Source of the DNA: Candidatus Omnitrophota bacterium
GTDB lineage: Bacteria > Omnitrophota > Gorgyraeia > Tantalellales > Tantalellaceae
Assembly (NCBI GenBank): GCA_043813915.1
Contig: JBDRKO010000001.1
Location: forward strand, 64,835-128,834
DNA length: 64,000 nucleotides
Direction: 5' to 3'
Shown here: one piece after another, positions 14,457 through 53,385 of the stretch
How the letters are laid out: every line of letters starts with the position of its first letter
How positions within the stretch are numbered: the first letter of the stretch is position 1
Translations under genes and position numbers: made by a program
Notes under the pieces: model-generated
Database searches by the model: none
The model's input: only the letters and a program-made list of their open reading frames with translations
Told to the model about the DNA's origin: nothing

Positions 14457-14466
14457 CCCTCCCCCT

Positions 14467-35320: not shown

Positions 35321-35561
35321 CACGGACCGCCTTGTTCTTTTTGAGTAAGCCCTGCTTAAACACCTATATATGCAGAAGTAATGGTTAAAAGTATCATAAT
35401 CTTCCTCTGATGTCAAATAGGATTATCCCGGGCCTTTCAAATCCCCGGGGACAGCAGAGGTCCGTTCGGATCTGACGGACCGAAAACGCGCTTAATGCGT
35501 TTAATAACCATTAGAAGGATCGTAACAAGGTGCAGTTTGAAGATGGGCTTGAGAACTTGGC

Positions 35562-35790
35562 AATATCCGTCAATTTACCGATACCCCGGGCTAAAGACCG
35601 GAGCTTGCTTGCCCTGAGCGAAGCCGAAGGGCTTGCCCTGAGCGAAGCCGAAGGGCTTGCCCTGCCTGCCCCGCCTGTCCCGAGCAAAGCCGAGGGGAGT
35701 TTGTCGAGGGGAGCGAACCCGAAGGGTTCCCTATCGACCCGGCACGGCAGTGTCCCGAGCAAAGCGAGGGGAGCACCGGCGAATGGGTGA
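35562..35790. repeat. intergenic repeat element copy 1, abutting ftsA stop, with internal 25-bp tandem expansion
   Basis: TGTCAATTTACCGATACCCCGGGCTAAAGACCGGAGCTTGCTTGCCCTGAGCGAAGCCGAAGGG ... GGCGAATGGGTGAA; about 2.5 tandem GCTTGCCCTGAGCGAAGCCGAAGGG units plus degenerate units; inverted copy at 53135-53262. Confidence 0.55.
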
Positions 35791-35792
35791 AC

Positions 35793-36860
35793 TTAGAAAT
35801 AACTGTCAATAAAATTGATGATCTTATCCGCGGCACCTTTAAAAAGATCCGTGTTCCTCCTATCCTTTAGGCGTTCGGAGTATAAGTAGTCCAGCATACC
35901 CAGACTGCCTACGTACCCAACCCTATCCTGCGGCAATTTCTCGAAAGGACGGACCGAACAGTTCCCGATCTTCACGGGAAGCTTGAACACATTTTCCGCC
36001 GCGTCTATAAATTCTTCCGTCATCGCGTCCTCAAAAAAGACAACGATCTTACGGACTTTATCCCATCCCTCTAAACTTTTGGTATCCGAATAAAGCGTCC
36101 GGAGCGCCTCTTCCTGTACACCCGCCTCTCCTGACATCATCTCCTCGGTTCCGCCGTGCGATACGCGTACTCCGCACAATATGCCGTCGTTGAACACGAG
36201 CGTTTCCTGAAGGTCCCTGCGGATAGCCAGAAAAATAGCTCCTTTCTGCATATCCTCTTCCGAAAGTATCCTATAAGCCGAAGCCAGTCCCGAAAAAATG
36301 AACCCCGCGGGAACGGATCCGGAATCCGCTATGACCCTTTGCATGTTCCTTATGACGGAAGAATTTACCGTTACGACGTTCACGTGGGCATCCAGCTTGA
36401 TCCCTTCAAGGTTGAATGGATCATGAATACCGTCTTCCCCGTCAACCGCGAACCCGGCCACTATGCGGTGGATGGGCTCCTTCTCTATAGGCATCTTTAC
36501 GATAGAGGCCATTTTGATACATCGCTTAATGTCAAAACGCGATATCTCCCTGCCGTACTTAGACACGAGTACGGTACCTATCCCTTTCGTGAGACCCAAG
36601 GAGGAAGAGCTTATACCCGCGTATACATCTCTTATCCCCTTGGTATCCAGCCGTCCTATGACCTCTCCGATCGTATCGGTCGCGGCTCCGGAGTCAGAGA
36701 CAGCTCCCCTGAGGAACCCTCTGGAAGGGACCCTGGAGAATTTCTCTATGGCATAATCACCGCTCCGGTTCCATCTGACCGAGACGGCCGTGACATTCGT
36801 GCTGCCGATGTTCACCGTCGCAAAATATTTACCCATCGAACGTCCTTGTTTTGTTACCAT
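35793..36860 (-). CDS. ftsA: cell division protein FtsA
   Basis: Actin-like fold, 355 aa, immediately after ftsQ. Confidence 0.85.
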   Translation of the reverse strand: MVTKQGRSMGKYFATVNIGSTNVTAVSVRWNRSGDYAIEKFSRVPSRGFLRGAVSDSGAATDTIGEVIGRLDTKGIRDVYAGISSSSLGLTKGIGTVLVSKYGREISRFDIKRCIKMASIVKMPIEKEPIHRIVAGFAVDGEDGIHDPFNLEGIKLDAHVNVVTVNSSVIRNMQRVIADSGSVPAGFIFSGLASAYRILSEEDMQKGAIFLAIRRDLQETLVFNDGILCGVRVSHGGTEEMMSGEAGVQEEALRTLYSDTKSLEGWDKVRKIVVFFEDAMTEEFIDAAENVFKLPVKIGNCSVRPFEKLPQDRVGYVGSLGMLDYLYSERLKDRRNTDLFKGAADKIINFIDSYF

Positions 36861-37642
36861 TATCTGGGGGATAATACGGCATCATCGAACCTGAGATCGA
36901 TATAGTTCATGTCGACTATGTCCATATCCGGATCCCGAATGATCTCCCTCAGTTTTTCAAGTTTAGAACGGAAATTGTCCGCGCCCATTTTGATCAAAAC
37001 GCCTTTCACGGAAAGAGTCGTGTTCCTGCTGTCCGAGACATCAATACTGTCTACCTCCGTCCTCGTTCCGCTGAAGATCTCGTCAACGGCTTTCAGCAGA
37101 ACAAGCGCCTTGTCCAAATTCCTATTGCTGATAATGCTTCCTTTAGCCGGCGACTTGAAAATAAAATTCACTCCTATGATCTTGGTAAGGTTCTTCGGCT
37201 CGTTCCCTATGTCCAGGACAAAACCTTCTCTGTCTATGATCACCCCTCCCAGAGAATCTATCACCGCTATAGGTTCTCTGGATATTATCTCCACATAAAG
37301 CGTATCGGGAAGTATCCTCCGGACTTCGACCCTTTTAAAATGCCCGAAATCATTCCGTATCAGGCCTTCCGTCTGTTTAAGGTCGATGCTGAAAATGTTC
37401 CGCCCCAAATACCGTTCCCGTATCTTCCCCTCGTCCTCATTGAACGAGTAGCCTTTTATATTATTGACGGTCACTTTTCTTATCTCAAAAGTCCCGCTGC
37501 TCAGAACCGTCCTTACGGCAGCCGATCCCATGCCTATCAGGAGAGCCGCGCCGATAACTAAGAACAGCACGCCCCTGTTCCTCCGGACCTTTTCAAAAAG
37601 ACCCGATGCCATTCCGTTTTTTTTGCTTTTTTTTCTCGCCAC
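36860..37642 (-). CDS. ftsQ: cell division protein FtsQ (POTRA)
   Basis: N-terminal TM then POTRA/FtsQ domain, between ddl and ftsA. Confidence 0.75.
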   Translation of the reverse strand: MARKKSKKNGMASGLFEKVRRNRGVLFLVIGAALLIGMGSAAVRTVLSSGTFEIRKVTVNNIKGYSFNEDEGKIRERYLGRNIFSIDLKQTEGLIRNDFGHFKRVEVRRILPDTLYVEIISREPIAVIDSLGGVIIDREGFVLDIGNEPKNLTKIIGVNFIFKSPAKGSIISNRNLDKALVLLKAVDEIFSGTRTEVDSIDVSDSRNTTLSVKGVLIKMGADNFRSKLEKLREIIRDPDMDIVDMNYIDLRFDDAVLSPR

Positions 37643-37691
37643 TCTTCCTCCTTGTCAGGATAATGTTACGGCTTATCCCGGGCTGCCGTGC

Positions 37692-38624
37692 TCATCCCGC
37701 GCTAAGAGCCGTAAGAAGCATTCTAACACATAGTTCGGAAAAATCTATACCCTCTTCCCTGGCCGCCATCGGAAGAAGACTTCTTTCGGTAAGCCCCGGT
37801 ATGGTATTGACCTCCAGAACGTACATATCTCCGTTCGCCGAAGCTATCATGTCCACTCTGGAGAACCCGGAACATCCGAGCACTTTGTGCGCCTTAAGCC
37901 CCGCATCCTGAGCCATCCCGTATGCTTCCTCGGTCAGCCCGGCGGGCACTATGTATTTTGTCCGGCTCGAGGTATATTTGGAATGAAAATCATACGTGCC
38001 GCATTCCGGTTCTATTTCTACGACGGGCAGGGCCTTTTCGTCAAGTATCCCTACCGTTATCTCTCGGCCCGATATATACCGTTCCGCGATAACGTCCGGC
38101 CCGAATTTCAACGCTTCGCGCACGGCCTCCTTTAACCCCTCCTCCGAGGGAACAAAGGACAGCCCTATGCTAGACCCCTCTTTCGCGGGCTTTATTACGC
38201 ACGGAAAACCGATCTCGCCGGAAACGATGTGTTCTTCTGACCGTACGATCTCATATTCGGGGATCTTTATCCCGGCGCTATGAAGTCTTTTTTTTGTCTC
38301 TATTTTATCGAAAGCTATGCGGGATGCTTCGGGACCCGACCCGCTATAAGGGATACCCTTCCCCTCCAGTATGGACTGGACGGTCCCGTCCTCCCCGTAT
38401 TTCCCGTGCATCGCTATGAAAGCTACGGTAACACCCGAAATTTCCTCATCCCTTATAGAACCGTTCTTTTCTACCTCTATCAATACCGTGTTGAGGCCAA
38501 GCTCTTGGAACGCGCCGAACACCGCGCGGGCGCTTTTAAGACTTATGTCCCTTTCGCTGGAAGGCCCTCCCGCCAGAACACCTATCCTGTGGCCTCGAAG
38601 CGCTTCCATCCCGTTATTTTTCAT
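37692..38624 (-). CDS. ddl: D-alanine--D-alanine ligase
   Basis: ATP-grasp fold, GVLAGGPSSERDISL N-terminus. Confidence 0.9.
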   Translation of the reverse strand: MKNNGMEALRGHRIGVLAGGPSSERDISLKSARAVFGAFQELGLNTVLIEVEKNGSIRDEEISGVTVAFIAMHGKYGEDGTVQSILEGKGIPYSGSGPEASRIAFDKIETKKRLHSAGIKIPEYEIVRSEEHIVSGEIGFPCVIKPAKEGSSIGLSFVPSEEGLKEAVREALKFGPDVIAERYISGREITVGILDEKALPVVEIEPECGTYDFHSKYTSSRTKYIVPAGLTEEAYGMAQDAGLKAHKVLGCSGFSRVDMIASANGDMYVLEVNTIPGLTERSLLPMAAREEGIDFSELCVRMLLTALSAG

Positions 38625-39549
38625 ATTCCGCGTCCTTCATTATCATGATCTCGGGGTAAAGCTCTACCGAGAACCTATTCTTTACTTCATTCTCTATCTT
38701 TTTCATGAGCTTTTTCACGTCAGAGGCCGTGGCGCTCCCTTCGTTGACGATGAAATTCGCGTGTTTTTCGGAGACCACCGCTCCGCCCGACCTCGAGCCT
38801 TTCATCCCGCTCAGTTCTATAAGTTCTCCGGCGGACCTATTATCGCCTTGAGGGTTCTTGAATATACATCCGAGCGTTCTCTCTAGTAAAGGCTGCTTTT
38901 CCATCTTTTCCGAAAAATACGCTTTCAGTCTCTCATCCGTTTCCTTTCTGGAACATCTCTCAAATTCGAATTCCGCTTTAAGGACAATATCCCCTTTTTC
39001 AAGGCCCGAACATCTATATCCGAATCCCATCTCTTTTTGCTCCAGCCATCTCTCTCCGCGCGTTTCGCTCCACACCAACACTTTTCTGACCATACTGCCG
39101 ATATCTCTTTTATATCCGGCGTTCGTTCTTACGGCACCGCCTACCGTGGCGGGGATACCTACCAGACCTTCAGCCCCACCCAGGCCTTCCGCACGGCACG
39201 CTGCTATCATGTATTCAAGCCTCACCCCCGCTCCCAGGACGAGGTGCTGTCCCCGGGCCGATATTTCAGAGAACACGCCTTCTCTTATGATCACCACGAC
39301 CGCATTGAACTCGTTGTCCGGGAAAAGGACATTACTGCCTCTGCCCAAGATCTCCGATCTTATGTTTCCGCGCCTAAGTATATCCGAAAGCTGTATCAGT
39401 TCTTCGGCGCAGGAAGGCAGGTATACCGCCGCGGCTTTTCCTCCTACTCTCATTGTACTGTAAAGCGACATGGGCCGGCCGAACAGCACTTTGCCGCCGT
39501 ATTTTCTGCTCAGTCTTTCTAATTGTCCGAAAAATGGTCTTTCTGTCAT
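38614..39549 (-). CDS. murB: UDP-N-acetylenolpyruvoylglucosamine reductase
   Basis: FAD-binding MurB domain, 311 aa. Confidence 0.85.
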   Translation of the reverse strand: MTERPFFGQLERLSRKYGGKVLFGRPMSLYSTMRVGGKAAAVYLPSCAEELIQLSDILRRGNIRSEILGRGSNVLFPDNEFNAVVVIIREGVFSEISARGQHLVLGAGVRLEYMIAACRAEGLGGAEGLVGIPATVGGAVRTNAGYKRDIGSMVRKVLVWSETRGERWLEQKEMGFGYRCSGLEKGDIVLKAEFEFERCSRKETDERLKAYFSEKMEKQPLLERTLGCIFKNPQGDNRSAGELIELSGMKGSRSGGAVVSEKHANFIVNEGSATASDVKKLMKKIENEVKNRFSVELYPEIMIMKDAEYEK

Positions 39550-39553
39550 TGTT

Positions 39554-40924
39554 CTACGCCTGCCCTCCGATGCTAGCGACTATTCCCGGACCGATCTCCC
39601 TGATATCCCCGGCACCGAGAATGAGGACCATATCCCCCGGCGAGGTAAGTCCCGGCATCGCTCCGGGAATATCCTCCTTACTCAGCATCTCCAGCACGGA
39701 GAACCTTCCCCTATCCATCCTGTCCAATATATCCTTGACCGATATTTTATTTAAAAGGCCTTCCTCGTCCGCGGAATATATATCCGTTAGTATCACATTG
39801 TCCGCCTCGTTAAAACAGCGGGTGAAATCCTCGGCTAGGTCAGCTGTTCTTGAATAGCGGTGAGGCTGAAAAACAACTGTCACTTTTCCCGGCGCGGCCT
39901 GTTTCGCGGCCCTTATGACAGCCTTGATCTCCGTCGGGTGATGCGCGTAATCTTCTATCACCCGGACACCCTTTACCTTGCCCACTTCTTCGAATCTTCT
40001 CTTTACTCCCTTAAAGGATCCCGCTCCCGAAACAATATCTTCCATACCCGCCCCCGCTTCCAGACAAACAGCCGACGCGTTCAAAAGGTTCATAAGATTA
40101 TGTCTTCCCAAAAGCGGGCAGATCACTCTTCCCATATTGCTTCCTTTCGCGATAAGATCGAACTCGATACTTTTGTCGAAGACCTCTCCGGAGCAGGTAA
40201 TATCGCATCCCTTTTTTATCCCGAACGAGACTTTCCTTACTTTTTCCGCGGCGGGCAGTATGTTCTTAATGGCCTCATCCTCTCCGCTGAAAACGAACGC
40301 CCCTCCTTCTGAAATATTGTTCAAAAACGATCTATACGCGTTCAAGAGGTCGTCCCATCCCTTGTAATTTTCCATATGTTCTCTTTCTATATTCGTAACG
40401 GACGCTATGTGTGACCGTATGTTCCGAAAATATCCGTCACTTTCATCGACCTCCGCAACGACCATATCCCCGGCACCTTTTTTCGCGTTACCTCCGATGG
40501 ATCCTATCTCCCCTCCGAGAATAACGGTAGGGTCCCATCCGGACGTCTCGAGTATATGAGCGATAAGCGCCGTTGTCGTGGTCTTGCCGTGAGTGCCTGT
40601 AACTGTCAGGGCGGACCCTGCTTCTTCCAGCATCCTTCCGAGAAATTCACTTCTCGGCAGGACGGTTATCCCTTTGTCCAAAGCCGCCATCAGCTCGGGG
40701 TTATCCTTTTTTATCGAAGACGAGACTATTACCATCTCAGTCCCTTCCGGGATATGAGAAGAGGCGTGCCCCTCGTACACCTTGGCGCCGCGTTCGCACA
40801 ATTCTTCTATCAGCGGGTTCGACCTTATATCCGAACCCGAGACCTTATCTCCGCCGGCTATACTTATCTTAGCCAGCGCGCTCATACCTATACCGCCTAC
40901 GCCTATAAAATGTATATGTTTCAC
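39554..40924 (-). CDS. murC: UDP-N-acetylmuramate--L-alanine ligase
   Basis: IHFIGVGGIGMSALA, Mur ligase domains. Confidence 0.9.
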   Translation of the reverse strand: MKHIHFIGVGGIGMSALAKISIAGGDKVSGSDIRSNPLIEELCERGAKVYEGHASSHIPEGTEMVIVSSSIKKDNPELMAALDKGITVLPRSEFLGRMLEEAGSALTVTGTHGKTTTTALIAHILETSGWDPTVILGGEIGSIGGNAKKGAGDMVVAEVDESDGYFRNIRSHIASVTNIEREHMENYKGWDDLLNAYRSFLNNISEGGAFVFSGEDEAIKNILPAAEKVRKVSFGIKKGCDITCSGEVFDKSIEFDLIAKGSNMGRVICPLLGRHNLMNLLNASAVCLEAGAGMEDIVSGAGSFKGVKRRFEEVGKVKGVRVIEDYAHHPTEIKAVIRAAKQAAPGKVTVVFQPHRYSRTADLAEDFTRCFNEADNVILTDIYSADEEGLLNKISVKDILDRMDRGRFSVLEMLSKEDIPGAMPGLTSPGDMVLILGAGDIREIGPGIVASIGGQA

Positions 40925-42051
40925 TTATTCCTCATTTTTCTTTTTTCCCGTTTTTTTTCAGCCTCGCCGATGACCGCGTCGGCCAGGTCAGGACCCGCTG
41001 ACGGTCTGGCCAGTCTCGCGGCGGAAAGGGCCATAACGCGCAGCTTTTCCTTGTCCCTCAAAAGTCCCAATATGTCCTCACCGAGGGACTCTCCGGTGAT
41101 ATCGGGCTCTTCTCTGTATACCGCGGCACCGGCCCCGAAAAAAACAGCGGCGTTCGATCTTTGATTGTTCTTCGGATGCGGATACGGGACCAGGATCATG
41201 GGTTTACCGTAATAAGCCAGTTCGAACACCGCGGCGGCCCCCGAACGCGAGATCGCCAGATCGCTCACAGAGTAAGCCCGGTCGATCCTTTCCATAAAAG
41301 AGAAAACTTTTCCCTCGACATCGTTGGAACGATAGAACTCCTTTATCCTGTCATGATCTTTTTTCCCCGTCAAGTGAAGGAACTGCACGCCTTCTCCGGC
41401 CGCGCGTTTAACGCAGAGGGCCGCTTCAGACGCGGCTTTATTCAGGAAGGAAGATCCCTGACTGCCCCCCATAACGAGGACCGTGAACTTACAGGGGTCC
41501 ATCCCCAGCTCCGCGGCGGCGGATCCTCTGTCATTTATGAGCATATCCACCCGCAGGGGGTTGCCCGTACATCGTACGCGTCCCGGTCGTCCTTTGAAAT
41601 ATTCTTTTGACCCTTCGAAACTCACGGCAATAACATCGGCGATACGTCCCAATATCCTGTTTGCCCGGCCGGGAGATAAATTCTGCTCGTGTATTATGAC
41701 GGGTATGCCCAGGACCTTCCCCGCGACAGCGGCCGCCCCGGAAGAATATCCGCCGAAACCTACCACCGCGTCAGGACGTTGCCGAAGAATAATAAAAAAT
41801 GATACCGCTATATCCAACATGAATTTCATCGCGAACACCAGTATACGCAGGGGATAAAACCCCAAAGGCATGGGGTTTATAGAAAGAAAAAAACTGGGGA
41901 ACCCGTATTCTTTCAGTATATTCTTATCCAGATCGCGTCTGCTGGAGACCAGAAGGATATCTTCCACTCCTTTTTTTCTTAGTTCCGAGGCCAGGACCAC
42001 CGCCGGGAAGATATGTCCGCCTGAACCTCCCGCCGCGATAATGATCTTCAT
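40921..42051 (-). CDS. murG: undecaprenyl-PP-MurNAc-pentapeptide GlcNAc transferase
   Basis: MKIIIAAGGSGGHIFPA, GT28 family. Confidence 0.9.
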   Translation of the reverse strand: MKIIIAAGGSGGHIFPAVVLASELRKKGVEDILLVSSRRDLDKNILKEYGFPSFFLSINPMPLGFYPLRILVFAMKFMLDIAVSFFIILRQRPDAVVGFGGYSSGAAAVAGKVLGIPVIIHEQNLSPGRANRILGRIADVIAVSFEGSKEYFKGRPGRVRCTGNPLRVDMLINDRGSAAAELGMDPCKFTVLVMGGSQGSSFLNKAASEAALCVKRAAGEGVQFLHLTGKKDHDRIKEFYRSNDVEGKVFSFMERIDRAYSVSDLAISRSGAAAVFELAYYGKPMILVPYPHPKNNQRSNAAVFFGAGAAVYREEPDITGESLGEDILGLLRDKEKLRVMALSAARLARPSAGPDLADAVIGEAEKKREKRKMRNK

Positions 42052-42605
42052 TAATATATCCTTGTGTATAAAAGTCTAAAGGTCTAAAGGTCTTTTAAGT
42101 AAATTGCCAGAAACCTGTTACCAGTTGCCAGACCAAAACAGTTTAAAAGTCTAAATGTCGAAAGTCCCAATAGACCATTGACTGTTGACCATGGACTATT
42201 GACCATTATGCGAATCCATCAATACTGACCTATTTGTCGCTAAAGACAATGGTCAATCGTCAATTGTCCATAGTCCAATATCGTCTCCGTCCTCTGACTT
42301 CTGTCTTCTGACTTCTAGCTCTCCGGAATACCCGCTCTTCTCAGTCCGCTTTAGCGGACTGGATGTCCAGTATCTTCCGAGCTCTTCCCCTCCATCCAAC
42401 GTATAGTCCTGGTCACGACAATAACTTCGTTACCTGATCGGGTGGGTATTCTAGGCGAGTTCCGCAACCCCGCTGCTTTGTTTTGCAAAGCAAAACAACG
42501 GGGTGAGGACTGTCTGAGCCCAGAATACCCGCCGATCGGGTAACCATTTTCACATCAGTCAATACAACCCGACAAACTCTACAAACGCAACAAACCCCAC
42601 AAACC
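42052..42605. repeat. 550-bp repeat-dense spacer between ftsW and murG with extended hairpin (about 42432-42542)
   Basis: GTCTAAAGGTCTAAAGGTC, TTGACCAT/TATTGACCAT repeats, TCTGACTTCTGTCTTCTGACTTC module, CAGTCCGCTTTAGCGGACTG hairpin, long imperfect inverted repeat GATCGGGTGGGTATTCTAGG...CCCAGAATACCCGCCGATCGGG around the internal hairpin CCCCGCTGCTTTGTTTTGCAAAGCAAAACAACGGGG, inverted copy of the TTTGTAGAGTTTGTCGGGTTGTATTGACTGATG module. Confidence 0.55.
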
Positions 42606-43691
42606 CTACTCCGCTTCCCGCGCCATGTTCAATATGAGCCCCACCGCGGCCATATGACATACAAGCGAACTTCCGCCGTAACTGATAAAAGGAAGCGGCA
42701 GACCTTTTGTCGGCAATATCCCGGACGATACCCCGATATTCACTATCACCTCGAACGCTATCATTGTCGCAAGCCCGAATACGGCGGATGACGCGAATCT
42801 TTCTTTTATCTTGAAAGATATCCTGAACGCGTACCACACCAGCACGGCAAAAAGAAATATCGTCGCGGCCGCTCCCATGAACCCCAGTTCTTCCCCGATT
42901 ATGGAAAAAATAAAATCCGTATGCGATTCGGGAAGGTAGAAAAGTTTTTGTTTAGACTCCCCCAACCCCACTCCGAGCAATCCTCCCGACCCCAAAGCTA
43001 TGAAAGACTGTATGAGCTGAAAACCCGCCCCTTGAGCATCTTTCCACGGGTTCACAACGGTCAGAATACGGCTTATCCTGTACGGTTTGCTCTTGACGGC
43101 CCATATCAGAGCCGGTATCATACCCAGGACTATTGGCAAAAGATGCCCGACCTTTATTCCCGCGGAGAACAGCATGACCGTTCCGATGAACAATATCGCG
43201 ACAAATGTCCCCATATCCGGCTCTAAAAGGACAAGACCTCCGATGAACCCCACGGCAAAAAAAGACGGGATGAACCCCTTGTAAACATCCTGTATAAGAT
43301 TTCCTTTACGGGCGATAAGATCTGACAGATACAGGACCATCACTATCTTGGCGACTTCCGACGGCTGGAACCCAAAACCAAATAACCGTATCCATCTGCG
43401 CGCTCCCCCGGCCATCGTTCCTACACCCGGGACCATCACTAATACCAGAAGCAGTATGACCGCTAGCATCGCGGGTCGAGCATATTCTCTTATAGCCCCG
43501 GGTTTTACGGACATAAGGAGCACCGCGACCCCCAGGCCTGAAAGAAGAAAGAACAAATGTCTTTTTACGAAGAATAAGCTGTCATGGTAACGCCCGTACG
43601 CATATATCCCGCTGGATGAATATATCATGACTATACCAAGCATCAAGAGCATCGAGGCCGAGAACAATATCATCTTGGAATCTTTTATCAT
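42606..43691 (-). CDS. ftsW: cell division peptidoglycan glycosyltransferase FtsW
   Basis: SEDS family, ATGA overlap with murD. Confidence 0.85.
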   Translation of the reverse strand: MIKDSKMILFSASMLLMLGIVMIYSSSGIYAYGRYHDSLFFVKRHLFFLLSGLGVAVLLMSVKPGAIREYARPAMLAVILLLVLVMVPGVGTMAGGARRWIRLFGFGFQPSEVAKIVMVLYLSDLIARKGNLIQDVYKGFIPSFFAVGFIGGLVLLEPDMGTFVAILFIGTVMLFSAGIKVGHLLPIVLGMIPALIWAVKSKPYRISRILTVVNPWKDAQGAGFQLIQSFIALGSGGLLGVGLGESKQKLFYLPESHTDFIFSIIGEELGFMGAAATIFLFAVLVWYAFRISFKIKERFASSAVFGLATMIAFEVIVNIGVSSGILPTKGLPLPFISYGGSSLVCHMAAVGLILNMAREAE

Positions 43692-45052: not shown

Positions 45053-45163
45053 AATAGTGAACGGTGACTCGTAATTTGTAATTCGTGATTCGTGACTCGT
45101 GATTCGTAAGCAGTGAACAGTGAATCGTAGGGGCACGGCATGCCGTGCCCCTACCATCATCCG
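45053..45163. repeat. short intergenic repeat: (CGTGAYTCGTRA)n module plus perfect palindrome AGGGGCACGGCATGCCGTGCCCCT
   Basis: Directly downstream of the mraY stop; same CGTGATTCGTGA module as 20607-20640. Confidence 0.5.
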
Positions 45164-46252: not shown

Positions 46253-47601
46253 TTCAGTATGTCCTCCATCTTTGCCGCGCGCGACCCTTTCAGAAGCACA
46301 CAGGATCCTTCCGAGATCCTGTTCTTTATTATCTCTGCCGCATGGCCGTGATCCTTGGCCACGGTCACTCTGCCTTTATCCATACCCGCCGCTAAAGCGC
46401 CTTCGGCCGTAACATCCGACCATGTGCCGACCGCCACAAGCATATCCGCCCCGCTCTCGGCTATGCGTCTTCCCAATTCCCGGTGAACGGCTTCACTCTC
46501 CTCTCCCATTTCCATCATATCTCCGGCGACGACCACCCTGCCGCCCTTGCAGGCGTTTTCAGAAAGAACGTCCAGCGCGCACTTAAAAGAATCCGGATTG
46601 GCATTGTAAGAATCGTTTATGAAATCTATTCCTCCGGCCGTTACTCTCTCGAGCCGCATAGGCGGAAGCGCGACCGTCCGGACCCTCTCTTCTATGGACG
46701 GGCTCTCACCGACAAAATCCAGAGCAACGGCAATTGCCGCGGATACGTTATATACGTTATGGAGCCCGTCTTGCGGAAAAAAATAACTCTTTCCCTGTAA
46801 ACGGAACCGATACCCGCCGTCCCGGCGGGAAACATCCTCTATCCTCATATCGTTCCATCCGGACATCCCGAAAGATATCACGTCATCACGGCTATCCCCA
46901 AAATCCCGGAGAAGCGGATCGTCCCCGTTGACAAAGATCTTGCCGCCTTGGCGCAGGTATTTTGTCAAAGCTGTCTTCTCTTTCAGCACGCCTTCCTTGC
47001 TGCTAAAAAATTCCATATGCGCTCTGCCGATATTCGTTATGACTATTACGTCCGGACGGGCAATGCGCCCCAATACCGCCATCTCGCCGGGATGATTCGT
47101 CCCCAGTTCCAGCACTGCGGTCTCATGATACGGTTCCGCGTCGAACAATGTCAGGCTCAGCCCTATGATATTATTGAAAGACCTTTTACTGGCAAGCACC
47201 TTATCTTTTCCGGAAAGAAGCCACGACAGCATATCTTTTACCGTGGTCTTTCCGTTGGAGCCCGTCACGGCGATGACCTTGCCGTTCATCCTTTTCCTGA
47301 TCTCACCGGCTATGTCCGCAGCGGCAGGCGTAACCTCACCGACCTCCAGAACGGCCCCGCACATATCCATGATATCCCGCGGCATTTTGCGGGATACGAT
47401 GATGCCGGACGCTCCCCTATCCAACGCCTCTTTCACGAAATCATGCCCATCGAAATTCTTCCCTCTTACGGCCGCGAACATATCTCCATTTCTCACCGTC
47501 CGAGAATCGATAGATATACCTTTAACGCTTTGCTCCCCCGCTCCCCGGAGTATCCTGCCGCCCGCCGCGTCCGCCAGATCCTTCAATCTTAGGTCTATCA
47601 C
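46225..47601 (-). CDS. murF: UDP-MurNAc-tripeptide--D-alanyl-D-alanine ligase
   Basis: Mur ligase family, VIAVTGSNGKTT. Confidence 0.85.
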   Translation of the reverse strand: MIDLRLKDLADAAGGRILRGAGEQSVKGISIDSRTVRNGDMFAAVRGKNFDGHDFVKEALDRGASGIIVSRKMPRDIMDMCGAVLEVGEVTPAAADIAGEIRKRMNGKVIAVTGSNGKTTVKDMLSWLLSGKDKVLASKRSFNNIIGLSLTLFDAEPYHETAVLELGTNHPGEMAVLGRIARPDVIVITNIGRAHMEFFSSKEGVLKEKTALTKYLRQGGKIFVNGDDPLLRDFGDSRDDVISFGMSGWNDMRIEDVSRRDGGYRFRLQGKSYFFPQDGLHNVYNVSAAIAVALDFVGESPSIEERVRTVALPPMRLERVTAGGIDFINDSYNANPDSFKCALDVLSENACKGGRVVVAGDMMEMGEESEAVHRELGRRIAESGADMLVAVGTWSDVTAEGALAAGMDKGRVTVAKDHGHAAEIIKNRISEGSCVLLKGSRAAKMEDILKCFMTYSIR

Positions 47602-47633
47602 TTCCTGCGCCCCTATTCTTCCGAAGTTTCCTT

Positions 47634-49097
47634 CTACACCTTGACCGCGAAACCCATATTTTTCAATATACCTTTTACTATCTCAGCATCATCGAAAGGA
47701 AAACGCCTGTTCCCTATGATCTGGTAATTCTCGTGTCCTTTGCCCGCAACAATAACTATATCCCCTCTGCCCGCTTTCTCCAAGACCTTTTTAACGGCGT
47801 TCCCGCGGTCCTCTTCCACGGTATATACGCAGCCATCCGACATGCCGTCTGTTATCTGCCCTATGATATCAGAGGTCTTTTCGGTCCGGGAATTATCACT
47901 GGTCACTACCGCCTCATCTGCCATTGATGAAACGACCTTTCCCATAAGCGGCCTTTTTTGTTTATCCCTGTCTCCACCGCATCCGAACATACATATAAGT
48001 TTACCGGTAACGATATTTCTAAGCGCACCTAATACCTGCTCAAGAGCGACGGGGGTATGCGCGTAATCCACAAAGACCCTGAAGGGCGCGTCCGAAGATA
48101 TTTCCTGAAGCCTGCCGGGAACACCTTTAAAACTTTCCGCTCCCTTTTTGAACTCATCCAGGCTGATCCCGCTTTCAACGAGACATGCCGCGGCGCCCAT
48201 CACATTATATACATTATGCGCACCGAGCATGCTTATTTTCATAGGAACGCTGCCGTGTTTTCCGGCATTCAATATGAACCGCGTTCCCGTTTCGCTGTAT
48301 TCTATCGCTTCGGCCCTTATCTCGGCATCTTCTCCGATACCGAACGTAATACATCGGAAAAGATCTCTGCACCGGGCCGCTTTTTTTACGGCAACATCAT
48401 CCGCATTTATCACGCCTAACCCGCCGATCTTCAAATGGTCGAAGATCTTGGCCTTTTCCTCAAGATAGGGCCCCATACTGCCGTGATAATCCAGATGCTC
48501 GGGGGTGATGTTCGTAAATACGGCAATATCCAGTTTTATTTCCGCTGTCCTTTTCTGGCTCAACGCGTGACTGGATATCTCGATGACCGCGTGTGTCTTA
48601 CCCGAGCGCAGCATCGCCTCTAATTCTCTGTTGACCGATATCACATCGGGCGTTGTCATTTCGGATGGTTTCAGGGAATTGCCCCGGCTCTTGACCGCTA
48701 CGGTGCTCATGAACCCGCTGGCCCTGCCGGTCATATTAAGGATACTATCTATCAGATATACCGTTGTAGTCTTGCCGTTGGTCCCCGTTATCCCGTAGGT
48801 AACAAGATCCTTCGACGGGTCCCGGAACGCGATCCTGGCCAATTCACCGAGGGTCTCGCGGCTGTCCCTGACTACCTCTATCCTTTCATCTTGTCCGTCA
48901 TATATCGCGGCCCTCGACCGTTCGCATACAACGCACGCGGCTCCTCTGTCCAGAGCTTCGGATATGAACCTGTTGCCGTCAAGATGACAGCCTTTTATCG
49001 CGACAAAAACATCACCGGGCGAGACCAGACGCGAGTCTGTTCTTATCTCCCCCGCTGCGTCGTTCATTTTTTTTATGATCTTATCGGTCTCCGTCAT
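47634..49097 (-). CDS. murE: UDP-MurNAc-L-Ala-D-Glu--diamino-acid ligase
   Basis: Mur ligase, ITGTNGKTTT; start at MTETDKII five nt after ftsI stop, long upstream extension rejected. Confidence 0.85.
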   Translation of the reverse strand: MTETDKIIKKMNDAAGEIRTDSRLVSPGDVFVAIKGCHLDGNRFISEALDRGAACVVCERSRAAIYDGQDERIEVVRDSRETLGELARIAFRDPSKDLVTYGITGTNGKTTTVYLIDSILNMTGRASGFMSTVAVKSRGNSLKPSEMTTPDVISVNRELEAMLRSGKTHAVIEISSHALSQKRTAEIKLDIAVFTNITPEHLDYHGSMGPYLEEKAKIFDHLKIGGLGVINADDVAVKKAARCRDLFRCITFGIGEDAEIRAEAIEYSETGTRFILNAGKHGSVPMKISMLGAHNVYNVMGAAACLVESGISLDEFKKGAESFKGVPGRLQEISSDAPFRVFVDYAHTPVALEQVLGALRNIVTGKLICMFGCGGDRDKQKRPLMGKVVSSMADEAVVTSDNSRTEKTSDIIGQITDGMSDGCVYTVEEDRGNAVKKVLEKAGRGDIVIVAGKGHENYQIIGNRRFPFDDAEIVKGILKNMGFAVKV

Positions 49098-49102
49098 ATC
49101 GC

Positions 49103-50794
49103 TTATTGTATTCCTTCCGTTTCCGCAGTTCCGGGGTTTGACGCCAGATACTGAAGCGCTCTTTCGGCTATATTTTTGAACACCGGACCCGCAACGGTCC
49201 CACCGTAATGGGCTTTTTTGGGATACTTCGCGGTCACTATTATGCTGACAAGCGGTTTTTCCTTCGGCCCGAAACCGATAAAGGTCGAATTGTATCTGTC
49301 CGCGTAATATCCTCCCGCGGGATCTACCATCTGAGCTGTCCCGGTCTTTCCGCAAAGCCGGTATTTTTTTGACCGTGCCCGTTTTCCGGTCCCGTCGTTT
49401 ATGACCGCTTCCATAATGTCTTTCATTTTATCACAAGTTTCGCTATTTAGTACCCTTCGCTTAACATCCGTCCGGAACTCATTACTTATATCCCCTTCCC
49501 AGTTCACTATCTTATCGACGATACGGGGGGTCATTAAATATCCGCCGTTCGCGATAACGCTAACGGCGGAGACAAGCTGGATCGGAGTAACGGCGATCCC
49601 CTGGCCTATGGGAATGGTCGTCATATCACTTTTGCTCCATTTAGAAGGAGGCCGGCAGATACCCGAGGCTTCTCCGGGAAGGCCTATCCCCGTTAACTCT
49701 CCGAACCCGAATCTCTTTATGTAATCATATAAGGGCTTTTTCCCGAGTTTTTGCGCGGCCTTTACGGTCCCGATATTGCTTGATTTGGCTATGACCTCAA
49801 GAAAGGGCAGTTTCCCGTATTTATGCACATCGTGCAGGATCCGTCCTCCCACGGAATATACGCCGTTCTCGCAATATATTTCCTCGTCCAGACCGACCGC
49901 GTTCTCGTTAATGACGGCGCTGGCGGTCACTATCTTAAAGACGCTGCCGGGTTCGTACATATCCGCTACGGCCGTGTTCTTGATATGTTCTTTCGGGGCC
50001 CGTCCATGATCGTTAAGATCGTAATCGGGATAGCCGGCAAGGGCGAGTATGCGTCCTGTATCCGGTTCCATAACAATGACCGACGCGCTTTCGGGACGGT
50101 ATTTCTCCGCCATAACGGATAACTCCTCTTCCGCTATGAACTGGATAACGCTGTCTATGGTCAGGATGATGTCCGATCCGTTCTTAGGAGGAACCGATTC
50201 CTTTTCAATGTAAAAGACCGTACGCTGTCTAGCGTCGCGTAACGAACGGCGTTCGCCGGGGACGCCTTTAAGCTGCCCGTCGAACATAAGCTCCAGCCCT
50301 TCCAGTCCCGTATTATCCGTTCCCGCAAAACCTATGACGTGTGATGCCAGTTTCCCGCTGGGATAGTTCCTTCTGCTTTCCTGCACAATGTAAAGACCCT
50401 TGACACCCGTACCGACAACCGCCGCGGCTTCTTCTTCGGCGACCTTCCGCTCTATCCAGACAAAAGCCTTATCCCTGGAAAGCTTTTCGAAAAGTGTATC
50501 CTTATCTATTTCCAGTATCCCCGCAAGGATCCCGGCAGTGCCTTCCGGATCCGCGATCTCCCGTGAATTGCAGTAAATGCTCGGAGCGTCCAAGTTTATT
50601 GCCAATGGGTCCATATGACCGTCGAAGATCCCGCCGCGCCGGGGCTCTATCCGATGCGCCGATGAATGCTGTCCGTCGGCCAAGGCGATAAATCTGTCCT
50701 TAATTATGATCTGAAGATAAAAGAGACGCGCAAAAAGGGATACAAAAAGGGACATGATAAGAAGTACAACAAAATAACGGCGCGTTCTGAGCAT
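49103..50794 (-). CDS. ftsI: penicillin-binding protein 3 (division transpeptidase FtsI)
   Basis: N-terminal TM, dimerisation domain, SVFK / SSN / KTGTA. Confidence 0.85.
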   Translation of the reverse strand: MLRTRRYFVVLLIMSLFVSLFARLFYLQIIIKDRFIALADGQHSSAHRIEPRRGGIFDGHMDPLAINLDAPSIYCNSREIADPEGTAGILAGILEIDKDTLFEKLSRDKAFVWIERKVAEEEAAAVVGTGVKGLYIVQESRRNYPSGKLASHVIGFAGTDNTGLEGLELMFDGQLKGVPGERRSLRDARQRTVFYIEKESVPPKNGSDIILTIDSVIQFIAEEELSVMAEKYRPESASVIVMEPDTGRILALAGYPDYDLNDHGRAPKEHIKNTAVADMYEPGSVFKIVTASAVINENAVGLDEEIYCENGVYSVGGRILHDVHKYGKLPFLEVIAKSSNIGTVKAAQKLGKKPLYDYIKRFGFGELTGIGLPGEASGICRPPSKWSKSDMTTIPIGQGIAVTPIQLVSAVSVIANGGYLMTPRIVDKIVNWEGDISNEFRTDVKRRVLNSETCDKMKDIMEAVINDGTGKRARSKKYRLCGKTGTAQMVDPAGGYYADRYNSTFIGFGPKEKPLVSIIVTAKYPKKAHYGGTVAGPVFKNIAERALQYLASNPGTAETEGIQ

Positions 50795-50828
50795 ACCGGA
50801 TGTGCCTTGTTATAAATAATTGTTTTTT

Positions 50829-51188
50829 TTAGCGGGACTTAGCTTCGGCGATCGGAGTGAACGCGTCGAGCATTCTGCCGAAAACGTTCTTCTCCGTAAC
50901 GGCAACACCCGTCGACGCGAGAGCGAGCCTGTAGCTGCCCGTCTGGATGCTCCTATGCTTAGCGAAGATAATATCTTCCCCGTCCAGGGAAGTAAGCAAA
51001 TATCTGGGAGACTCCAATCTTGATAGATTATACATTAACTTGGAGTTACGGTCAATCAGTTGGGAGATACGCCGGATATTGTCCTGCATCATATATCCGG
51101 CCTTCAGCGTTTCCACGCGCTGATGGACATAGCATACGGAGAGTAAAGTGAATGCCAGACCTATTATGACCATTCTATGTGTTCTCAT
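50829..51188 (-). CDS. ftsL: FtsL-like cell division membrane protein
   Basis: Small bitopic protein with coiled coil in the canonical position between rsmH and ftsI. Confidence 0.5.
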   Translation of the reverse strand: MRTHRMVIIGLAFTLLSVCYVHQRVETLKAGYMMQDNIRRISQLIDRNSKLMYNLSRLESPRYLLTSLDGEDIIFAKHRSIQTGSYRLALASTGVAVTEKNVFGRMLDAFTPIAEAKSR

Positions 51189-52069
51189 TATACCCTTTCC
51201 GCTATTCTTAACTTCGCGCTTCTTGATCTGGGGTTCTGCCGTTTTTCTTCCTCGGAAGGCACTATCGGTCTTTTTGTCACGATCCTGACCTTCCCGGTCC
51301 TTTCCATATCCCTAAAAAGGTGTTTCGCTATACGATCCTCCAGGGAATGGAACGATATCACGCATATCCTGCCTTGCTTCTCGGTGTGATCGAATATCTC
51401 TGTCAGAGCTTCCCTCTCGGAATCAAGTTCATCGTTAACGAATATCCTCAGAGCCTGGAACGTCCTGCATGCGGGGTGCATCATTTGTCTCGTGTACCTT
51501 CTTCCTATGGCCCTGGTCACTAGATCCGAAAGTTCTTTTGTGGTTCGTATCCTTTTCTTTTGCCTTTCGGAGCAGATAATGTTCGCCAAGTGTCTGGCAT
51601 GCCTTTCTTCCCCGTAAGACCGGATAATATCCGCTATCTCATCCCTGCTGAAACGGTTCACGACGTCGCTTGCGGAAATGCCTTTATGGCGGTCATACCT
51701 CATGTCCAGCGGGCCGTCTTTGGAAAAGCTAAAACCTCTTTCCTCCTCATCGACCTGGAACGACGACATGCCCAGATCGAATACGGCACCGTTAACTTTT
51801 TTGATTCCGCTCTTTTCAATGATCGACCCTATATTCCTGAAATCCTCGTTAACGAAGATCATACTGCCGCTGACTTCCTTGAACTTGACCTTGCTCCTCT
51901 CTATGGCGTCCGGGTCCCTGTCTACCGCTATTATTTTACCGCCGGGGAGCACATGCTTAAGTATCTCCTGGGAATGTCCTCCTCCTCCCAGTGTCGCGTC
52001 CATTATCACATCCCCCGGTTTGAGCGAAAGATGCCCGATTATCTCCCTCACGAGTACCGGACAATGCAC
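51188..52069 (-). CDS. rsmH: 16S rRNA (cytosine1402-N4)-methyltransferase
   Basis: MraW family, DATLGGGGHS SAM motif. Confidence 0.9.
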   Translation of the reverse strand: MHCPVLVREIIGHLSLKPGDVIMDATLGGGGHSQEILKHVLPGGKIIAVDRDPDAIERSKVKFKEVSGSMIFVNEDFRNIGSIIEKSGIKKVNGAVFDLGMSSFQVDEEERGFSFSKDGPLDMRYDRHKGISASDVVNRFSRDEIADIIRSYGEERHARHLANIICSERQKKRIRTTKELSDLVTRAIGRRYTRQMMHPACRTFQALRIFVNDELDSEREALTEIFDHTEKQGRICVISFHSLEDRIAKHLFRDMERTGKVRIVTKRPIVPSEEEKRQNPRSRSAKLRIAERV

Positions 52070-52106
52070 GAATATACCCCTCTGTTCTTTTCGGATGCGC
52101 GGCGCA

Positions 52107-52301
52107 TCAATGACCGCCGCTAAGAGCCCTGCCTATTATGCCCACCTGACTCTTGTAAAAACGGCTATATTCGCCTATTAGGTCCTTTCCCTTTCCTTTA
52201 TGTCCGGGGACCGACCTGTTTTTGTCCGCGCCCGACCGGGTCCTGCCGTAAATGGACCCGCCCATATCACATGCCTGGATATATCTTTTTACAGGTTTCA
52301 T
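52107..52301 (-). CDS. small hypothetical ORF (about 64 aa), translationally coupled to the upstream ORF
   Basis: ATGA stop-start overlap with ORF 52298-52489; basic protein; no recognisable family. Confidence 0.2.
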   Translation of the reverse strand: MKPVKRYIQACDMGGSIYGRTRSGADKNRSVPGHKGKGKDLIGEYSRFYKSQVGIIGRALSGGH

Positions 52302-52489
52302 CCGCAATCCTTTATCGTAAGATACGACCTTTTCCCCAATCCGGAGGACGAAACAACAAACCTCTTTACGCCCAGATGCTCTATCCCCGCGGGAAGCGCC
52401 CTGGCTTTCTTGATCCTTTCCACCATGTTCACGCAGTTTATGAATTCCATCTGTTTTTTATGGAATTTTATAGCGTATCTTCTGTACAT
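52298..52489 (-). CDS. small hypothetical ORF (63 aa) inserted between mraZ and rsmH
   Basis: Starts 22 nt after the mraZ stop; no recognisable family. Confidence 0.2.
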   Translation of the reverse strand: MYRRYAIKFHKKQMEFINCVNMVERIKKARALPAGIEHLGVKRFVVSSSGLGKRSYLTIKDCG

Positions 52490-52511
52490 GTTGCCCTCCT
52501 TAGAATGATCT

Positions 52512-52964
52512 TTATATTTCCATCAAGCCTTCGGCTATCTCTTCATATTTCGGTTTGGAGGTATCGTAGAACTCCTTCCACTTATCTTTGGCCCATATCT
52601 CTATGCGGTTCGATACGCCTATTATCATGATGTCCTTTGACAGCTTGGCGTATTCCTTCAAATAGTCCGGCACCAATATTCTCCACTGCTTATCGGGGAC
52701 GGCTTCGAACGCTCCGGAAAAGAAAAGTCTTTTGAACTTGCGCACTTCCCCTTTGGTAAAAGACAGGCCTCTGAACTTGCTCTCCTGAGCATGCCATTCG
52801 CTTTCGGTGAAAACGAAAAGGCACTGGTCCAAACCTCGTGTCACATAAAGCTTTTCTTCCCCCGATTCTCTTATAGGAAGACGGAACTTAGCCGGGACAA
52901 TGAGCCGGTTCTTTTTATCAAGGCTGTGTTCGTATTCACCGTAAAACACTCCACTTACCTCCAC
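52512..52964 (-). CDS. mraZ: transcriptional regulator MraZ (GTG start)
   Basis: Duplicated DxxxR motifs (DKKNRLIVP, DKQWRILVP). Confidence 0.85.
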   Translation of the reverse strand: MEVSGVFYGEYEHSLDKKNRLIVPAKFRLPIRESGEEKLYVTRGLDQCLFVFTESEWHAQESKFRGLSFTKGEVRKFKRLFFSGAFEAVPDKQWRILVPDYLKEYAKLSKDIMIIGVSNRIEIWAKDKWKEFYDTSKPKYEEIAEGLMEI

Positions 52965-53134
52965 TTTAATCCACTAACAATAGAGAGTATACATAAAAGC
53001 AGGGATTTTGTCAAATAAGTAACTTTCTTGAGTTTTAAATTTTACGAGGAATTACACAGCATATAGCGGTTTTAATAATACAGACCACATTGTATGGTGG
53101 CTTGAAGTATTCGAAAAAACTTTATTTTTTTACC

Positions 53135-53262
53135 CATTCGCCCCAGCGAAACCCCGCGCACTGCAGGATCAATTGGGAACCCTTCGGCTTCGCTCAGGGC
53201 AAGCAAGCCCCGGTCTCTAAACCGGAGTATCGGTGAATTGACAGATAAAGCGGATACGTTTC
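53135..53262. repeat. intergenic repeat element copy 2 (inverted relative to copy 1), upstream of mraZ
   Basis: Reverse complement reads TGTCAATTCACCGATACTCCGGTTTAGAGACCGGGGCTTGCTTGCCCTGAGCGAAGCCGAAGGGTTCCC...GGGGCGAATGGGTAAA, matching 35562-35790 without the tandem expansion. Confidence 0.55.
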
Positions 53263-53314: not shown

Positions 53315-53361
53315 AAAAAAAAAAAAAAAAGGGGTGAGACAGACCTTATCTATCTCACCCC
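53315..53361 (-). terminator. strong rho-independent terminator, hairpin structure is bidirectional
   Basis: GGGGTGAGAcagaccttatctaTCTCACCCC hairpin flanked by A16 on one side (U16 on the minus strand) and TTTTATCTT on the other. Confidence 0.6.
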
Positions 53362-53385
53362 TTTTATCTTCACATACATTACGCC

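Follow-up and report, generated by a model that had tools for sequence, protein, structure and literature searches.

Probable decayed members of a dispersed, modular intergenic repeat family at both borders of the dcw cluster of a Candidatus Omnitrophota bacterium

Introduction

The BOX elements of Streptococcus pneumoniae are built as boxA-boxB(n)-boxC, measure ~100–250 nt, and lie dispersed between genes, where they are often co-transcribed; to our knowledge, no cognate transposase has been identified for them. Classical miniature inverted-repeat transposable elements (MITEs), such as Correia, ERIC/IRU, RUP, and Nezha, are characterized by clear terminal inverted repeats and by target duplications (TA for Correia). 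Palindrome-associated transposable elements (PATEs) are non-autonomous derivatives of the insertion sequences (IS) IS200/IS605 (PMC10055086, PMC3119063), and are defined by subterminal same-strand hairpins, a transposon-adjacent motif, and guide pairing (PMC10055086). Here, we analyze a short repeat element that occurs in inverted orientation at the two borders of the division and cell wall (dcw) gene cluster, mraZ to ftsA, in a 64,000-nt stretch of Candidatus Omnitrophota DNA (contig JBDRKO010000001.1, positions 64,835–128,834; hereafter, the window). The two copies are probably decayed representatives of a non-autonomous, modular repeat family that is dispersed through the intergenic sites of this genome. 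The family is a new, lineage-restricted, modular MITE/REP-like family, where REP denotes repetitive extragenic palindromic sequences, and its bracketing of the dcw cluster looks incidental rather than the mark of a switch or regulator. Literature searches found no description of such repeats or MITEs in Omnitrophota. Metagenomes are the only source from which this phylum is known, and the analysis documents in it both a repeat family and a repeat-rich intergenic landscape.

The element shares with BOX its conserved terminal modules, variable number of internal modules, lack of an open reading frame (ORF), stable structure, and many dispersed copies. It differs in having no sequence relationship to BOX, in belonging to a different phylum, and in possessing internal modules that are very GC-rich within a 49% G+C genome; neither its strong antisense bias nor its two similar hairpins in direct orientation are known features of BOX. 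Like REP sequences, their bacterial interspersed mosaic elements (BIMEs), and REPINs with their REP-associated tyrosine transposase (RAYT), it places GC-rich palindromes at intergenic and operon junctions, shows a mosaic arrangement comparable to BIMEs, and lacks target duplication, and a RAYT-type HUH/Y1 enzyme is present in the same population. Unlike REP and REPIN sequences, it has no 5′ GTAG-type head beside a single 20–40 nt palindrome, its hairpins are direct rather than inverted, and its end modules are non-palindromic; moreover, the RAYT gene that was found adjoins palindromes of the CCATCCGGGATA type and not this element. The resemblance to PATEs comprises the absence of an ORF, same-strand subterminal hairpins at both ends, no clear inverted repeat or target duplication, strand bias, and an expected mobilization in trans. 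Unlike PATEs, no tnpA or tnpB with matching ends was found in 430 kb (the window plus the collected loci described below), a transposon-adjacent motif and DNA guide were not established, and the interior consists of GC-rich minisatellite-like modules rather than a tnpB or omega RNA remnant. With classical MITEs, the element has in common its size, copy number, intergenic location, co-transcription, and tendency to break assemblies, but the duplication is absent and the inverted repeat marginal. The proposal of a MITE or REP-like mobile repeat, made in an earlier sequence-only reading of the window, thus holds insofar as the element is dispersed, non-coding, hairpin-rich, and absent in relatives, and fails insofar as it lacks a target duplication, a strong inverted repeat, and a GTAG-headed palindrome.

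Two inverted copies in the window

Repeat detection, pairwise alignment, and shuffle controls bear out the initial observation that an inverted sequence pair surrounds the dcw cluster, and indicate that the pair is real and non-random. A repeat search of the window pairs 35564–35631 with 53180–53247 as inverted arms of 68 nt that are 90% complementary, together with two more inverted matches (I3, 34 nt, 85%; I4, 25 nt, 100%). The longest exact match spans 29 nt (35603–35631 vs 53208–53180), and pairwise alignment reveals a common 3′ end, GGCGAATGGGT. With a 68-nt arm at 90% identity and this shared 3′ end, the similarity reaches past the 25-mer that was first noticed. Pattern searches across the 64 kb returned three matches for the 21-mer core and two for the 5′ 20-mer, as compared to 0.00 and 0.03 expected from shuffled sequence, and both patterns are confined to the two copies within the window. 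With borders taken from 14 family members, the copies and their internal features are as follows:

35569–35791, plus strand (223 nt): repeat copy 1, antisense to ftsA and proC; modules are the 5′ end, hairpin 1 (one C.A mismatch), extra 24-nt units, GC-rich modules, a degenerate CAATTGATCC, S3, and the 3′ end
35584–35603, plus strand: hairpin 1 of copy 1 (CCCCGGGCTAAAGACCGGAG)
35607–35664, plus strand: tandem duplication in copy 1, 2.4 copies of the 24-nt unit GCTTGCCCTGAGCGAAGCCGAAGG (period 24, 100% matches)
53129–53243, minus strand (115 nt in the window): repeat copy 2, in the same sense as mraZ; modules are the 5′ end, hairpin 1, one 24-nt unit, CAATTGATCCTGCAGTG, a 3′-hairpin remnant, and the 3′ end
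53209–53228, minus strand: hairpin 1 of copy 2 (CTCCGGTTTAGAGACCGGGG)

Several details of the sequence-only reading change with these borders. Two inverted copies remain, but the bases 53244–53262, previously assigned to copy 2, are flank; tandem units are indeed present in copy 1, with a period of 24 rather than 25 nt; copy 1 does adjoin the ftsA stop codon (35793–35795), at a distance of one base instead of 2 nt; and copy 2 lies upstream of mraZ by 180 nt, measured from GTG 52949, and not by ~170 nt. The gene that follows ftsA is proC, according to Pfam, and not ftsZ.

Both copies are rearranged, and most of the 3′ hairpin is gone from each. Copy 1, whose forward strand is the plus strand of the window and reads GTCAATTT...GGGTGAA, has the compound 3′ hairpin deleted, whereas copy 2 is missing the ~57 nt that separate CAGTG from the hairpin's 3′ half. 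The 24-nt unit is one of the family's variable GC-rich modules, and occurs singly in copy 2 and at two further loci (L037 and L042; L numbers designate the collected loci). Independent JGI (L028) and ENA (L050) assemblies of the same locus together imply a copy 2 that may be ~71 nt longer, and the stretch absent from the window relative to these is CTTGCCCTGCCTGCCCCGCCTGTCCCGAGCAAAGCCGAGGGGAGCTTGTCGAGGGGAGCGAAGCCGAAGGG. The shorter form may represent either an assembly collapse or a length polymorphism in the population, produced by slippage at 16-nt direct repeats. Aligned with copy 1, the long form would agree over ~150 nt, including a 69-nt exact run.

A dispersed family

Searches of other genomes and metagenomes, of the kind proposed in the sequence-only reading, revealed that the element is not a two-site pair, with at least 16 further copies. 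GTDB species genomes were scanned with the seed TCAATTNACCGATACNCCGG (the 5′ 20-mer, with 18 fixed bases, against ~1.2 × 10^12 strand-positions), which yielded 15 matches, about the chance expectation; only one (L005) extends past the seed. In JGI metagenomes, the same seed pattern occurs at 27 loci, 17 of which are true copies, all from a single metagenome, 3300014656 (Ga0180007), and many at contig ends. An 18th locus (L047) was found through a spurious-ORF protein search. Two of the 17 contigs correspond to the window's own sites, namely L021 for copy 1 (100% identical to the window over the entire copy) and L028 for copy 2 (99.8% identity), while the flanks of the other 16 loci are unrelated. 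Within the window, an nhmmer profile built from 14 copies detected only the two known copies, and a scan of viral contigs gave no matches.

Identity to the window is 100% for the contigs L021, L016, L048, and L050 and 99.8% for L028, which indicates that one population underlies all of these assemblies. Two Logan contigs with identical ftsA and proC (L016 and L048) both stop inside copy 1, and the ENA contig with identical rsmH (L050) starts inside copy 2, as expected from the behavior of assemblers at multi-copy sequence. Exact look-ups of ProC, FtsA, RsmH, and the 114-residue protein encoded upstream of mraZ in other assemblies likewise retrieved only contigs that break in the repeat. With three independent assemblies ending inside the window copies, and with copy 2 varying in length, the repeat evidently breaks short-read assemblies, which affects the contiguity of metagenome-assembled genomes (MAGs) and the inference of operon boundaries around the dcw cluster.

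The single GTDB match that extends past the seed, L005, is a diverged copy on PWYR01000101.1, a 2.5-kb contig with 40% G+C in an Ignavibacteriales MAG, beside a gene for an AAA/DUF4143 ATPase; TnpB was considered for this gene and rejected on the basis of the ATPase assignment. The contig could be mis-binned, or the family could extend beyond one lineage.

Modular anatomy and folding

Full-length copies span 137–223 nt and are delimited by the conserved end modules GTCAATTCACCGATAC (5′) and GAATGGGTNAA (3′). In 5′ to 3′ order, the modules are:

Module 1, 5′ end: GTCAATTCACCGATAC
Module 2, hairpin 1: consensus CCCCGGTC-TAAA-GACCGGGG, with an 8-bp stem
Module 3: CTTG(CTTGCCCTG)
Module 4, optional GC-rich stack: CCTGTCCCGCCTG, TCCCGAGCAAAGCCGAGGGGAGC, TTGTCGAGGGGAGC, GAAGCCGAAGGG, and the 24-nt unit seen in the window
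Module 5: TTCCCAATTGATCCTGCAGTG
Module 6: TCCCGAGCAAAGCGAGGGGA
Module 7, compound hairpin: GCCCCGGC..CCCCGCGC-TAAAG-CACGGGG..GCCGGGGC
Module 8, 3′ end: GAATGGGTNAA

The short conserved module CAATTGATCCTGCAGTG stands between the GC-rich stack and the compound hairpin. Both ends have a nearby hairpin, and the two share a strand. Hairpin 1 begins 16 nt inside the 5′ terminus; in the 3′ hairpin, the outer stem stops 11 nt and the inner stem 23 nt short of the 3′ terminus. The sequence of the inner 3′ hairpin, CCCCGCGCTAAAGCACGGGG, is similar to that of hairpin 1, CCCCGGTCTAAAGACCGGGG. Each unit, with its non-palindromic conserved ends, holds two hairpins in direct orientation, 60–150 nt apart. 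Copies differ chiefly in their internal modules, the borders of which share short direct repeats. Specifically, L030 is a deletion derivative in which nothing but the 5′ end and hairpin 1 remains, fused to the 3′ end at CCGGGGC, and L029 is truncated after hairpin 1. Such variants have the appearance expected if short direct repeats inside the element had slipped or recombined.

The element has no coding capacity, since lengths of 137–223 nt keep no frame, and it carries neither a start codon nor a ribosome-binding site; a small-protein reading was rejected because copy lengths do not preserve a frame. A search of 5.8 billion proteins with the open frame-1 translation returned a single match, an ORF called across another copy in the same metagenome, and a scan for tRNA and tmRNA detected none.

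Canonical copies fold far better than shuffled sequence on both strands (z of –3.0 to –4.5), whereas the window copies, having lost the 3′ hairpin, fold no better than shuffles (z of +0.07 to –1.3). Within the main family, ~90% of stem cells in the alignment are paired, no different from shuffles, and the majority of substitutions disrupt pairing. G.U and C.A changes are equally frequent (13 each), such that neither strand is favored. No covariation was detected in the stems, with only one compensatory cell per alignment, and Rfam gave no credible match for the window at the gathering threshold or for four full copies at E ≤ 10, including none resembling omega RNA. Because pairing equals that of shuffles, without strand asymmetry or an Rfam match, the individual copies look like neutrally decaying insertions, and they gain stem-breaking substitutions at the rate expected without selection. 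The distant copies L005 and L047 retain the end modules together with GTCAATTCACC, CAATTGATCCTGCAGTG, and GAATGGGT, while their stems have changed compensatorily or the 3′ hairpin has been replaced by a different one. This pattern, seen in the distant copies only, suggests that a master element may need hairpins as well as the modules GTCAATTCACC, CAATTGATCCTGCAGTG, and GAATGGGT.

Genomic placement and orientation

At most loci, a stop codon is followed after 2–60 nt by the element and, 0–20 nt further on, by a ribosome-binding site and start codon, with the genes running in the same direction; copies thus occupy tight operon junctions and operon-end spacers. A start codon lies within 25 nt of the element end in about half of the copies. 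An outward –35 role for the element, which ends in TTGAC, was rejected as a general promoter function, as a suitable –10 at 17–18 nt occurs only in L029 and L033.

The complete dcw cluster occupies 35.8–53.0 kb on the minus strand, in the order mraZ, rsmH, ftsL, ftsI, murE, murF, mraY, murD, ftsW, murG, murC, murB, ddl, ftsQ, ftsA. Pfam confirms mraZ, rsmH, ftsI, ftsW, murG, ftsQ, and ftsA; the remaining names rest on gene order, ORF size, and the Pfam-annotated clusters of relatives. The features around the two copies are:

35352–35385 (approximate), minus strand: proC promoter block (TTGACA, 17 nt, TACTTT, with a TG extension), conserved in the window, L044, and L045
35793–36860, minus strand: ftsA, the last dcw gene (ORF, Pfam), with its stop codon one base from copy 1
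52512–52949, minus strand: mraZ, the first dcw gene, 145 aa from GTG 52949
52986–53014, minus strand: mraZ promoter (TTGACA, 17 nt, TATACT; 11 of 12 matches), conserved in relatives
53327–53365, minus strand: intrinsic terminator (18-bp stem and T run) at the end of the upstream gene, which encodes 114 aa

The proC promoter block, which a consensus scan missed because its –10 hexamer is weak, is downstream of copy 1 and outside the repeat. The start of mraZ is most likely GTG 52949, as called in L050. Copy 2 lies between the terminator (53365–53327) and the mraZ promoter (53014–52986), 115 nt upstream of the –35 hexamer. The block 52950–53014 is conserved in three genomes (the window and the equivalents in L051 and L052) and comprises the promoter followed by TAGTGGATTAAAGTGGAGGTAAGTGGA, which has three GTGG repeats ~10 nt apart, presumably the spaced MraZ boxes of an MraZ operator.

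At least 16 of 18 copies are antisense to the neighboring genes (two-sided binomial p = 0.0013). Copy 1 follows this majority, such that its reverse complement would be transcribed right after the ftsA stop codon as a 3′ tail of the dcw mRNA. The exceptions are copy 2, between terminator and promoter, and L005, in a 3′ untranslated region ahead of a terminator, two sites at which a polar orientation would do no harm. The bias fits selection against one orientation inside operons and strand-specific insertion equally, because nearly all window genes are on one strand. Together with its two exceptions, the bias offers a handle on whether repeat orientation reflects the insertion mechanism or selection against transcriptional polarity.

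The borders in relatives

Relatives were represented by GCA_043822885.1 and the Ca. Aadella gelida group, with FtsA 54% and 50% identical, respectively, and RsmH 65–66% identical. Gene order is kept on both sides, with ftsA-proC-yggT-...-ileS downstream and AAA-x-PilZ-x-PilZ-x-mraZ upstream, and both spacers are likewise long (480–620 nt). The element is absent from the orthologous spacers of L044–L046, L051, and L052 (nhmmer --max, E ≤ 10), in relatives that are distant by the measure of FtsA (50–54% identity). In place of the element, these spacers contain heptamers arrayed in tandem and palindromic repeats of other kinds. Two adjacent blocks are conserved, namely the proC promoter and the mraZ promoter with its three GTGG boxes, and both window copies are positioned just outside these blocks. 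The apparent bracketing of the dcw cluster is therefore best accounted for by both borders being permissive spacer zones that collect different repeats in each lineage.

Proposed origin and mobilization

For a family of this kind, internal modules would be gained and lost by slippage or recombination between short direct repeats, and the element would spread, or have spread, by transposition in trans, with the enzyme encoded elsewhere. A single-strand mechanism (HUH/Y1, similar to IS200/IS605 or RAYT) would fit better than a DDE transposase, because of the missing target duplication, weak terminal inverted repeat, same-strand subterminal hairpins, and orientation bias. Specifically, inspection of the flanks of ~18 copies revealed no direct repeat of 2–10 nt at the borders, and hence no target duplication. 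The orientation bias may instead reflect selection against the polar orientation inside operons; read forward, hairpin 1 is followed by CUUGCUUG, an arrangement that resembles a weak terminator.

Several points weigh against this interpretation of the pair as members of a mobile family. The idea of polarity is weak, since a terminator scan did not flag hairpin 1. Both insertion itself and the exact element boundaries are predictions drawn from the family alignment only. No conserved target motif was established outside the element: the GTCAA of the 5′ end is similar to the GTNAA of the 3′ end and is ambiguous between target and first element bases, and inspection revealed no guide complementarity. 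The opposite orientation of the window copies, 17.5 kb apart, misfits an insertion strictly directed by the replication strand. The Ga0180007 contigs may come from more than one genome, although their G+C is similar (45–52%) and some have further repeat types in common, either among themselves or with the window. Finally, no mobilizing enzyme is linked to the element, and the sole HUH enzyme found has its own, different palindromes.

This enzyme emerged from tblastn searches of the 430 kb with IS200 and IS608 TnpA (Pfam-validated) and an E. coli RAYT as queries. No TnpA was found with the IS200 and IS608 queries in the 430 kb, and the set as a whole yielded a single gene, L031:3440–4117 (minus strand, 225 aa), 2.7 kb from a copy of the element. 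The RAYT query itself missed Pfam Y1_Tnp at E ≤ 0.001, and its match was therefore re-tested independently. The L031 protein matches NCBIfam REP_Tyr_transpos with E 1.7e-17 and 63.7 bits (below the cutoff of 80) and Pfam Y1_Tnp with 37.8 bits (above the cutoff of 23), and possesses the motifs PTHMHLIL and RYIHLNP; it is a RAYT-like HUH/Y1 protein in the same population as the element. The gene is flanked (3385–3428 and 4163–4300) by long palindromes of the CCATCCGGGATA type, CCCC..AATCCATCCGGGATAA/TTATCCCGGATGGATT..GGGG, which recur at L042 235–279 and L043 1690–1717 and differ from the hairpins of the element. As a mobilizer of the element, the L031 RAYT is not supported, given that its flanking palindromes are of a different family. 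The long perfect palindromes at its flanks, CCCCTGAATCCATCCGGGATAA...TTATCCCGGATGGATTCAGGGG, constitute a second REP-like family in the same metagenome population; the window holds no convincing copy of the CCCCTGAATCCATCCGGGATAA type, with two one-mismatch matches to the 12-mer core inside genes, about as expected by chance.

A more far-reaching version of the single-strand proposal, which we consider unlikely, is that the copies represent undescribed, Omnitrophota-specific, ORF-less elements of HUH/Y1 type that insert strand-specifically at operon junctions, with the dcw copies exchanging by gene conversion or rare inversion. If so, an element of this type would shape the layout of operons and the ends of mRNAs in this group of bacteria, which are very small and depend on a host.

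Also unlikely is a classical MITE of a DDE transposase, with terminal inverted repeats recognized by an IS transposase and insertion accompanied by a target-site duplication. The element is small, ORF-less, and multi-copy, its termini TTCACC and GGTGAA are a perfect 6-bp complement, and a reading of sequence and fold aligns the ends as an imperfect inverted repeat of ~18 nt (TTCACC-GATAC-CCCGG vs TTCACCCATTCGCCCCGG). However, this inverted repeat is short, gapped, and beyond the 6 bp matches only through the CCCCGG stem sequence common to both hairpins; the 5′ GTCAA has no counterpart at the 3′ end; and the borders are without the direct repeats that such insertion would leave. In addition, no related IS occurs in the 430 kb, where each 5′ end leads to a 3′ end no more than 230 nt away or runs into the end of its contig, apart from the truncated copy in L029.

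Possible regulation and inversion of the dcw cluster

The sequence-only reading had also raised the possibility of a pair of regulatory or small-RNA elements. Here, the copies would be cis-regulatory RNA or small-RNA genes for the dcw cluster; for instance, one could stabilize the mRNA as a structure 3′ of ftsA, and the other could serve mraZ as a leader or as an antisense RNA. Copy 1, one base after the ftsA stop codon, would belong to the dcw transcript; canonical family members form very stable hairpins; enterobacterial REP and BIME repeats stabilize upstream mRNA; and the orientation bias of the family could reflect selection at the RNA level. However, the two copies are opposite in sense relative to transcription, and copy 2 has a strong terminator on its upstream side and the mraZ promoter on its downstream side. 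In relatives, where neither site carries the element, the promoters and MraZ boxes are conserved, and the window copies lie outside these blocks. The stems, moreover, are without covariation or strand asymmetry and without an Rfam match, the window copies show no excess folding, and the same element stands beside unrelated genes at 16 other loci. This explanation is thus not supported and appears highly improbable. The finding reveals no new regulatory or switching mechanism for cell-division genes, and there is no sign that the pair acts on the dcw cluster.

Recombination between copy 1 and copy 2, whether homologous or site-specific, that inverts the 17.5-kb cluster or homogenizes the copies and maintains two genome isoforms is physically conceivable, but it has left no trace in synteny, GC skew, contigs, or recombinase content, and can be regarded as extremely improbable. 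The arms share 29 nt exactly, and if the long copy 2 is real, the 69-nt exact run within ~150 nt of near-identity would make homologous exchange physically possible; the middle modules of copy 1 and the long copy 2 are also more alike than their hairpin-1 regions, which could reflect gene conversion. This similarity is not special, because the same modules occur in many other copies. Gene order and strand are the same in relatives with 50–66% identical proteins, from mraZ to ftsA and across both flanks (proC-yggT-...-ileS and AAA-PilZ-PilZ), GC skew is –0.183 inside the segment compared to –0.168 and –0.174 outside, and 15 essential genes would, once inverted, run counter to the region's strong strand bias. 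At copy 1, L021 extends across the junction in its non-inverted form, while L028 (outer flank) and L050 (mraZ side, starting inside the element) reach copy 2 and neither spans it. L028 was considered as an inversion isoform and rejected, given that its interior is self-repeating and departs from copy 1 at diagnostic positions, and is thus a looped repeat path through generic modules rather than the interior of copy 1. Finally, no recombinase, transposase, or invertase was detected among the ~57 larger window ORFs scanned with Pfam, which include Obg, RNase G, type IV pilus genes, MreBCD, PBP2, RodA, AroA, IleS, PilZ proteins, and AroB.

Other repeats and neighboring genes

Tandem arrays of 7–9 nt units (ATTCGTG, TCTGACT, GCATAGAGCAAAGC, GACCATTGACTATT, and AACCCTACA) crowd the intergenic regions, and were located as follows:

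Window 20522–20825, 42069–42609, 45056–45129, and 57264–57527: short tandem arrays
L044 11041–11523, L051 2366–2860, L052 2492–3113, L042, and L047 6990–7080: short tandem arrays

The same unit types recur in Omnitrophota genomes with FtsA only 50–54% identical, and the arrays recur at the same dcw junctions, namely murG-ftsW, mraY-murD, ftsA-proC, and upstream of mraZ. Window positions 42161–42284 are 93.5% identical to L037:11631–11754. These arrays resemble the heptameric short tandemly repeated repetitive (STRR) sequences of cyanobacteria. The ftsA-proC spacer of GCA_043822885.1 (L044 11100–11200) also carries a different GC-rich palindromic repeat, GTCATTGCGAGGAGGAGCAAGGCGAGGACGAAGCAATCT...AGATTGCTTCGC, similar to repeats that occur in many uncultured phyla.

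In this clade, ftsA is not followed by ftsZ (window 34526–36860; L044, L045, and L046), and ftsZ elsewhere was not searched for. The ftsA product is 347–355 aa long with SHS2_FTSA as its sole Pfam hit, and the next gene, proC, has its own conserved promoter. Elsewhere in the window, two tandem paralogous PilB/T2SSE ATPase genes (570 and 575 aa; 12744–16194) account for direct repeat D1 (151 nt, 73% identity), and lie within a type IV pilus operon that also encodes a secretin, PilM, PilO, PilC, and pilins.

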